Assembly (NCBI GenBank): GCA_965661685.1 | Contig: CBFIET010000175.1 | Span: forward strand, 20,160 to 84,159 | Length of the DNA stretch: 64,000 nt | Direction of reading: 5' to 3' | Source of the DNA: Planctomycetota bacterium | GTDB lineage: Bacteria > Planctomycetota > UBA8108 > UBA1146 | Made by a program: the position numbers and the translations under genes | Shown here: positions 32,654-32,881 of the stretch, piece after piece | Position numbering within the stretch: position 1 is the first letter of the stretch | Layout of the letters: every line of letters begins with the position of its first letter | Notes under the pieces: model-generated | Database searches by the model: none | The model's input: only the letters and a program-made list of their open reading frames with translations | Told to the model about the DNA's origin: nothing

Positions 32654-32881
32654 TCAGGACTGCTTGGAATCGATTGCGGAATAGATCTCTGAATTCTCCG
32701 GGAATCGTCCCAGTTCCTTCTTACTGAAGATCAGTTCGCCTTCGACACACACCTCGAAAACTCCTCCACTGCCCTCGATGAGGCGAGTGGAAGATCCATA
32801 CTTCTGGTCAATTTCGGCCGCCAAACTGGTGGCCTGAGGCGTGTAGTTTCACTGCACGCAGTATTCGATGCTGATCTCCAT
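32654..32881 (-). CDS. selW: SelW-like (Rdx family) selenoprotein, 75 aa, with selenocysteine at codon 11 (in-frame TGA at 32851..32849)
   Basis: Not in the ORF track. ATG at 32881 with GGAGAAGGG 7 nt upstream. Translation: MEISIEYCVQ-U-NYTPQATSLAAEIDQKYGSSTRLIEGSGGVFEVCVEGELIFSKKELGRFPENSEIYSAIDSKQS*. It carries the CxxU redox motif and matches SelW blocks (YCGAUGY...GTPQATGFFEV.V.G.LIHSKKKG). A stem-loop immediately downstream of the UGA is consistent with a bacterial SECIS. Confidence 0.85.
32816..32834 (-). promoter_or_regulatory. Putative bacterial SECIS hairpin downstream of the selW UGA
   Basis: Minus-strand RNA GGCCACCA-GUU-UGGCGGCC: an 8-bp stem with one A/C mismatch and a GUU apical loop. 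It begins 14 nt after the UGA. Confidence 0.55.

Follow-up and report, generated by a model that had tools for sequence, protein, structure and literature searches.

What is encoded in the 344 nt gap between the gene for the ABC-F protein EttA (30935..32620, minus strand) and an M20 peptidase gene (32965..34353, plus strand), and if a reading frame runs through this gap across an in-frame TGA, how is that codon read? The window analyzed here is a stretch of 64,000 nucleotides from an uncultured marine member of the Planctomycetota, and the mechanical list of its open reading frames offers only two entries for the gap, an 88-aa out-of-frame ORF (32808..33074, minus strand) and a 56-aa in-frame fragment that starts from a TTG (32654..32824). 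A sequence-only reading of the region had drawn attention to the gap and to the wrong-frame ORF as the only listed occupant, and this description is borne out, with the TTG fragment to be added. On the minus strand, 32881..32654 consists of an ATG, nine codons, a TGA, 64 sense codons and a stop. Direct translation yields MEISIEYCVQ, then the TGA (32851..32849), then NYTPQATSLAAEIDQKYGSSTRLIEGSGGVFEVCVEGELIFSKKELGRFPENSEIYSAIDSKQS and finally a stop TGA at 32656..32654; the earlier reading of start, peptide, stop and ribosome binding site was accurate. The resulting CDS (32654..32881, minus strand) would specify a SelW-like selenoprotein of the Rdx family with 75 residues plus stop, in which a UGA-encoded selenocysteine (Sec) is residue 11. 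Translation, matches to PF10262 and NF041051, a TGA in 76 of 80 homologous loci and three-periodic substitutions on both sides of this TGA are the evidence for this assignment. The start codon (32879..32881, minus strand) is ATG in 41 and GTG in two of 43 aligned orthologs. Upstream of it, at positions -14 to -6 from the ATG (32887..32895, minus strand), a Shine-Dalgarno-like element GGAGAAGGG can be read directly, with GGAG at -14 to -11, and probably acts in ribosome binding; (T)GGAG is retained at the same offset from the ATG in most of the close orthologs (L001-L014), with variable neighboring bases. The TGA falls on the U of a CxxU redox motif (32849..32860, minus strand; TGC GTG CAG TGA, Cys8, Val9, Gln10, Sec11), as had been proposed, and the motif aligns to that of CxxC proteins. 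The terminal TGA (32654..32656, minus strand) is a genuine stop codon, TGA being a normal stop in this window. The 88-aa ORF is spurious: it has no Pfam or other family match and overlaps the selenoprotein gene out of frame.

Family membership of the read-through product is clear. With the TGA translated as Cys, the product matches PF10262 (Rdx) with 74.2 bits (E = 9.6e-21, cut-off 22.6) over model positions 1-73 of 74, and with an X at this position the score is 67 bits. The part after the TGA alone reaches 49 bits (E = 7e-13), to which the ten N-terminal codons and the recoded position add 25 bits. Because the E value is this low for the read-through product, and also for the post-TGA part on its own, the match is far beyond chance. 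Further matches are found to the NCBIfam equivalog NF041051, "SelT/SelW/SelH family (seleno)protein" (99 bits, cut-off 88), and to TIGR02174 (64.2 bits, cut-off 34.2). The similarity to Rdx proteins that was expected from translation through the TGA is therefore present, with PF10262 and NF041051 in agreement. Significant matches in a sequence search of the PDB are all Rdx/SelW proteins, the best being 2fa8 (E 1e-9), and the TGA position aligns with the second Cys of the CxxC motif in the solved Rdx proteins (CTQC in 2fa8). The sequence-only reading had gone further and seen a block for block match of both halves to SelW. The family-level relationship in this claim stands, but direct similarity to mammalian SelW is weak: mouse SelW (2npb) is a marginal sequence match (E = 0.092, 16 bits), and the strong matches are bacterial Rdx proteins. 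The protein is 'SelW-like' at the family level only and does not qualify as an ortholog of mammalian-type selenoprotein W. Structure prediction is in line with the family assignment. An AlphaFold2 model was made of the closest full-length homolog, P0004, which is 64% identical to the window protein, with its alignment. The model (pLDDT 94.5) has the topology b1-[CxxU loop]-a1-b2-b3-b4-a2, and the CxxU motif lies in the loop between strand E3-8 and helix H14-28. The top 23 fold matches in the PDB are all Rdx/SelW proteins (TMq up to 0.91), followed by thioredoxins. By proxy of this homolog, the window protein is predicted to have the thioredoxin-like Rdx/SelW fold.

Conservation of the TGA was assessed by a scan of one genome per species, which returned 80 homologous loci. 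At least six phyla are represented, with members of Planctomycetota, Verrucomicrobiota, Chloroflexota, Bacillota, Deltaproteobacteria, Actinomycetes and others. The retrieval patterns were unable to favor TGA, since the sole pattern that spans the motif encoded Cys. The codon at the Sec position is TGA in 76 of these 80 loci and TGT or TGC in three (L042, L044 and L065); in the remaining locus both motif positions are TGA. The comparison of orthologs, which had been suggested as a check for Cys codons versus TGA and for frameshifts across the UGA, is thus in favor of a selenoprotein, with the frame kept throughout. The closest locus, on the marine Planctomycetia MAG contig CAYPPQ010000068, shares 92% nucleotide identity with the window over 7 kb. 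Codon entropy was determined in a set of 43 aligned orthologs from Planctomycetota and Verrucomicrobiota. Column entropies for codon positions 1/2/3 are 0.73/0.45/1.17 before the TGA and 0.87/0.54/1.53 after it, in one continuous frame. This periodicity, which continues in a single frame across the TGA, indicates that both halves are translated as one protein. These data also bear on the idea that the locus is a pseudogene, a CxxC-type Rdx gene inactivated by a nonsense mutation. A single base change from TGC or TGT to TGA would suffice for this, and Cys forms do exist, namely the three loci mentioned above. Against it, the same TGA is found in 76 of 80 loci from several phyla, the frame is free of shifts and of additional stops, the codons before and after the TGA are under purifying selection, and a conserved and covarying hairpin follows at the distance of a selenocysteine insertion sequence (SECIS); a gene lost to a nonsense mutation would retain none of these. 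We consider a pseudogene exceedingly unlikely.

Published criteria for bacterial SECIS elements (bSECIS) describe an apical loop of 3-9 nt, an upper stem of 4-16 bp and a minimum free energy of -7.5 kcal/mol or below (PMC13188914), with a G among the first two nucleotides of the loop, as a rule followed by G or U, and a distance of 16-37 nt between UGA and loop (PMC13188914). Downstream of the Sec codon, a 14-nt spacer AACUACACGCCUCA (32835..32848, minus strand) leads to a 19-nt candidate bSECIS hairpin, GGCCACCA-GUU-UGGCGGCC (32816..32834, minus strand), which is composed of 4 bp, a 1x1 A/C mismatch and 3 bp and carries the apical loop GUU at 32826..32824. It conforms to all published bSECIS criteria, with its GUU loop, seven pairs, a distance of 22 nt from UGA to loop and a dG of -9.9 kcal/mol, and RNAalifold independently predicts the same helix. 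The SECIS element that the sequence-only reading had expected behind the UGA therefore has a good candidate at the right distance. No SECIS family was found by Rfam at the gathering threshold in the whole window, Rfam being without a model for this hairpin class, and a search of 32600..32950 relaxed to E 10 again returned no SECIS, only a chance miRNA match. Substitution patterns likewise point to a role of the hairpin. Third-position entropy is 0.33 over the hairpin codons 16-22, compared to 1.2 in the four preceding spacer codons, where third positions are free to vary, and 1.5 downstream. This low synonymous variation reflects an RNA-level constraint on top of the protein code.

Covariation of the stem is in line with such a constraint. 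Within Planctomycetota and Verrucomicrobiota, 98.9% of cells are paired, and compensatory changes occur at two pairs, the base of the stem (G-C/G-U/A-U) and the fourth pair (C-G/U-A/G-C). In the Planctomycetota set, five of the seven pairs of the helix do not vary, so that the covariation comes mostly from these two pairs and from the comparison across phyla. In Chloroflexota, Deltaproteobacteria and Bacillota a hairpin is found in the same register with other stems (GCCGUCA/UGACGG, GCCGCUA/UGGCGG and GCCAUCA/UGAUGG). Across phyla, one pair changes from C-G to U-A in 11 sequences, none of which is unpaired, and the A/C mismatch is replaced by G-C or A-U. The covariation score of this cross-phylum set was reached by none of 500 shuffles, and pairing falls to 18-50% when the register of the hairpin alignment is shifted. 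Changes in the stem alter encoded residues (Thr to Val and Ala to Thr), indicating that the protein sequence co-varies to preserve the RNA. Among the Cys-form loci, L042 and L065 have no hairpin that conforms to the bSECIS criteria, and the only one in L044 is another hairpin, out of register, whose loop lies 33 nt past the codon.

Two observations on the diversity of these hairpins may be added. In the Nitrospiraceae MAG locus L065 (5031-5070, plus strand), a TGC Cys form, a remnant of the hairpin apex, GCCGCCA GTT TGGC, is found at the same offset; it could be the trace of a fairly recent conversion from Sec to Cys. The other Cys forms, L042 and L044, have no hairpin in the register of this remnant. 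A set of AT-rich homologs from Bacillota (Tissierellia/Clostridia; L043, L053, L054, L056, L059, L061, L064, L066, L071, L076 and L077) use another hairpin register, for example GAGCA-GUU-GCUC or AAGGC-AGUUA-GCCUU, in which the loop lies about 17 nt after the UGA. Many of these hairpins are weaker than the threshold of -7.5 kcal/mol. With this differing register, the SelW-like family has at least two SECIS layouts.

How has this gene been treated by public annotation? The sequence-only reading had predicted that gene callers which take TGA as a stop miss the gene, and the databases bear this out: among the 22 homologs recovered there is not a single correct call, all being truncated or mistranslated. 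Five of the 22 (P0001, P0003, P0013, P0020 and P0022; loci L088-L091) are truncated and start downstream of the TGA. Among these, a 56-aa call by JGI, which starts from a TTG that straddles the SECIS loop and its 3' arm and is without the active site, occurs on 20 contigs. These calls raise the possibility that the true product is only this 56-residue C-terminal fragment from TTG 32824, with the upstream CxxU region as an untranslated leader or a short terminated peptide. The ORF (32654..32824) exists and, as called by the public pipelines on these contigs, has an Rdx Pfam match. Yet the TTG is the codon of Leu20, lying across hairpin loop and 3' arm, and it is replaced by CTG, a non-start codon, in five of 43 orthologs. 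The product would be without strand 1 and the entire redox motif, as judged from the P0004 model, and conservation extends over the ten upstream codons, the ATG and the GGAG, with substitutions of the kind seen in coding sequence. These upstream codons also account for the 25 bits that are added to the Rdx match. A fragment starting at the TTG is thus highly unlikely to be the true product, and the 75-residue reading from the ATG is preferred.

The remaining 17 of the 22 homologs (listed as P0002, P0004-P0019 and P0021; loci L084-L087) are "full-length" and have a W at the Sec position. Taken literally, these entries would argue that the UGA is read as a standard amino acid, Trp or Gly, by an alternative code or by near-cognate suppression. 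The W entries must have been called with genetic code 4, because the DNA has TGA at this position and the calls overrun the real TGA stop; the W is an artifact of gene calling. TGA is moreover the ordinary stop of 30 of the 53 window ORFs, including the selenoprotein gene itself, which excludes an alternative genetic code. The position is that of the catalytic Cys in the Cys-form homologs and in the solved structures, as is characteristic of Sec but not of Trp or Gly. Decoding of the UGA as a standard amino acid is therefore barely credible, and Sec remains the preferred reading of this codon.

Among the homologs, two loci carry TGA at both positions of the motif. One is from Ammoniphilus sp. 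YIM 78166 (L075, 4992-5230, plus strand; NZ_SDLR01000002.1), where the product begins MDQIKLSLEY-U-TG-U-GF, and the other is metagenomic (L084, 15-236, plus strand; ENA ERZ23489272 scaffold_85271), with MEISILY-U-GV-U-NY. The hairpin is intact in both; counted to its loop, the distance is 31 nt for the first UGA and 22 nt for the second. Since both distances are inside the window of 16-37 nt, one element could serve both UGAs. For prokaryotes, the literature that could be searched describes UxxU in a Prx-like family only (PMC2398784). By their sequences, the UxxU Rdx homologs may represent an undescribed diselenide variant. The P0007 cluster comprises 30 member sequences. On three short metagenomic contigs (L085, 369-1329; L086, 127-1087; L087, 749-1709) the Rdx gene is one of four small genes, of 75-87 residues, that are packed closely in tandem. 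The other three have no Pfam match, and some of them share one base or about 10 nt with a neighbor.

Taken together, we consider it very probable that the gene at 32654..32881 is functional and encodes an oxidoreductase of 75 residues with a thioredoxin fold, a member of the Rdx (SelT/SelW/SelH) family, and that its UGA at codon 11 specifies Sec by standard bacterial Sec recoding. In the mechanism that we propose, translation would start at the ATG at 32881. SelB, in complex with GTP and Sec-tRNA(Sec), would bind the GUU apex of the hairpin, which begins 14 nt past the UGA, and deliver Sec to codon 11. Sec would be inserted instead of termination, and translation would continue to the true stop at 32654. 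By analogy to the family, Cys8 and Sec11, in the loop that joins strand 1 to helix 1, would presumably cycle between the selenol/thiol and the selenenylsulfide form, thereby reducing a substrate. Both SelB-dependent recoding and this redox chemistry are assigned to the window protein by analogy, and the function of bacterial SelW-like proteins has been described as unclear (PMC1088965). The evidence for Sec decoding implies that selA, selB, selC and selD would have to be present elsewhere in the genome, as the sequence-only reading had also supposed. Within the 64 kb of the window, ARAGORN detected no tRNA and hence no tRNA-Sec, and Pfam scans of 52 of the 53 window ORFs gave no SelA, SelB or SelD domains. 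Searches by tblastn with E. coli SelA, SelB and SelD returned no matches in the window and the flanks of the 80 loci, in which ARAGORN found one tRNA that is not of the Sec type. Further selenoprotein genes were not detected in the window by read-through of all 53 ORFs or among ORFs with one TGA and redox-like motifs in 12 intergenic gaps; the candidates were only low-complexity translations of non-coding appearance.

As for genomic context, the next gene on the same strand is ettA (30935..32620, minus strand), which encodes an ABC-F translational throttle and is identified by NCBIfam NF008775 (EttA; 792 bits, cut-off 599). It is separated from the selenoprotein stop by 33 nt. The SelW-like/ettA adjacency is found in 18 of 19 related loci (L001-L019), and in the remaining one, L007, the contig ends just past the selenoprotein gene. 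These 19 loci, which represent a marine Planctomycetota clade, share with the window (30935-36600) the order TrkH / pirin / M20 dipeptidase (divergent) / SelW-like / ettA / large FG-GAP-TPR protein, with EttA identities from 66% to 97%, and this arrangement is lost in more distant lineages. No terminator-like site was detected between the selenoprotein gene and ettA. A terminator-like hairpin with a T-run (CTCAAGGGTGTCACCCTTGGG TTTTTTCGGG; 32528..32548, minus strand) was considered and set aside: it lies in the first 100 nt of the ettA CDS, its frequency is that of chance (one found, 0.7 expected in shuffles), and it is probably meaningless. The SelW-like gene and ettA may be co-transcribed and are possible operon partners. 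A more far-reaching reading is that they form a conserved two-gene operon in which selenium-dependent Sec insertion at codon 11 gates transcription or translation of ettA by polarity or coupling. We regard this reading as very unlikely; if true, it would link selenium or redox status to the control of translation.

Other genes of the window deserve a brief description. The ORF at 25663-26535 (plus strand) has a MerR-type HTH joined to a B12-binding domain, as in CarH/LitR-like light-responsive regulators, and shares 4 nt with the start of an NAD-dependent epimerase/DUF1731 gene (26532-27497). Two EF-hand repeat proteins and three FG-GAP/VCBS-type repeat proteins are encoded in all (2381-3688, plus; 5535-6620, minus; 9206-10726, minus; 27631-30933, plus; 57444-59279, minus), one of the three FG-GAP/VCBS-type proteins having TPRs and a length of 1100 aa.

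How does this gene relate to selenoproteins that are already known? In 2005, a study of the Sargasso Sea reported that no prokaryotic selenoprotein family was more abundant there than the SelW-like proteins with a CxxU motif, with 48 Sec-containing genes and seven Cys homologs (PMC1088965). These proteins were again the most abundant family in the marine samples of the Global Ocean Sampling (GOS) in 2008, with 427 Sec and 56 Cys forms (PMC2398784). Family, CxxU motif and habitat as found here are hence already in the literature (PMC1088965, PMC2398784, PMC1794560). The window gene shares with these marine prokaryotic proteins the Pfam family, the motif and the habitat, as well as a bacterial-type SECIS within the coding region that has a G in a small apical loop. 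Sec forms far outnumber Cys forms in both cases (427 to 56 in the GOS data, 76 to 3 in the loci studied here). There is no substantive difference between them; what can be said of the window copy in particular is that it comes from an uncultured marine planctomycete and is embedded in a clade-specific M20 / SelW-like / ettA arrangement. Cys-type bacterial Rdx proteins of solved structure (Atu0228, 2FA8; PA, 2OKA; P. fluorescens, 2OBK; V. cholerae, 2P0G; SAV_2001, 3DEX) have the same fold, with TMq values of 0.83-0.91 to the P0004 model, and the redox motif at the same position, with sequence E values down to 1e-9. They differ in that they have CxxC, no SECIS and about 100 residues with extra termini, while the window protein has CxxU and is a minimal 75-residue domain. 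Mouse SelW (2NPB) and MIEN1/C17orf37 (2LJK) belong to the same Rdx superfamily with a thioredoxin-like fold (TMq 0.68 and 0.81 to the P0004 model), and in mammalian SelW the CxxU motif is located at the junction of strand 1 and helix 1, as in the SelW-like protein. However, eukaryotic SelW depends on a SECIS in the 3'-UTR together with SBP2 and eEFSec, while in the window gene the putative SECIS is inside the CDS, directly after the UGA. Published phylogenies suggest that SelW evolved at least in part independently in bacteria and eukaryotes (PMC1088965). With the SECIS/SelB system of the E. coli fdhF type, the window gene has in common an ORF-internal hairpin directly 3' of the UGA, an apical loop that starts with G-U and a distance within the consensus of 16-37 nt (PMC13188914). 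In contrast to it, the hairpin of the window gene has a shorter stem (seven pairs and an A/C mismatch), a 3-nt loop and a different primary sequence; it is a candidate SelB site with no curated Rfam match.

The gene thus belongs to a kind already described, the selenoprotein family that is the commonest known in marine bacteria, and does not represent a new mechanism or a new family; SelW-like CxxU proteins were recognized as the most abundant marine prokaryotic selenoproteins in 2005 and 2008, and curated HMMs exist. What is gained is a corrected annotation, by which a catalytic CxxU redox protein is returned to the proteome of a widespread uncultured marine lineage of Planctomycetota. The lineage is thereby marked as a likely user of selenium, which is relevant to trace-element ecology.
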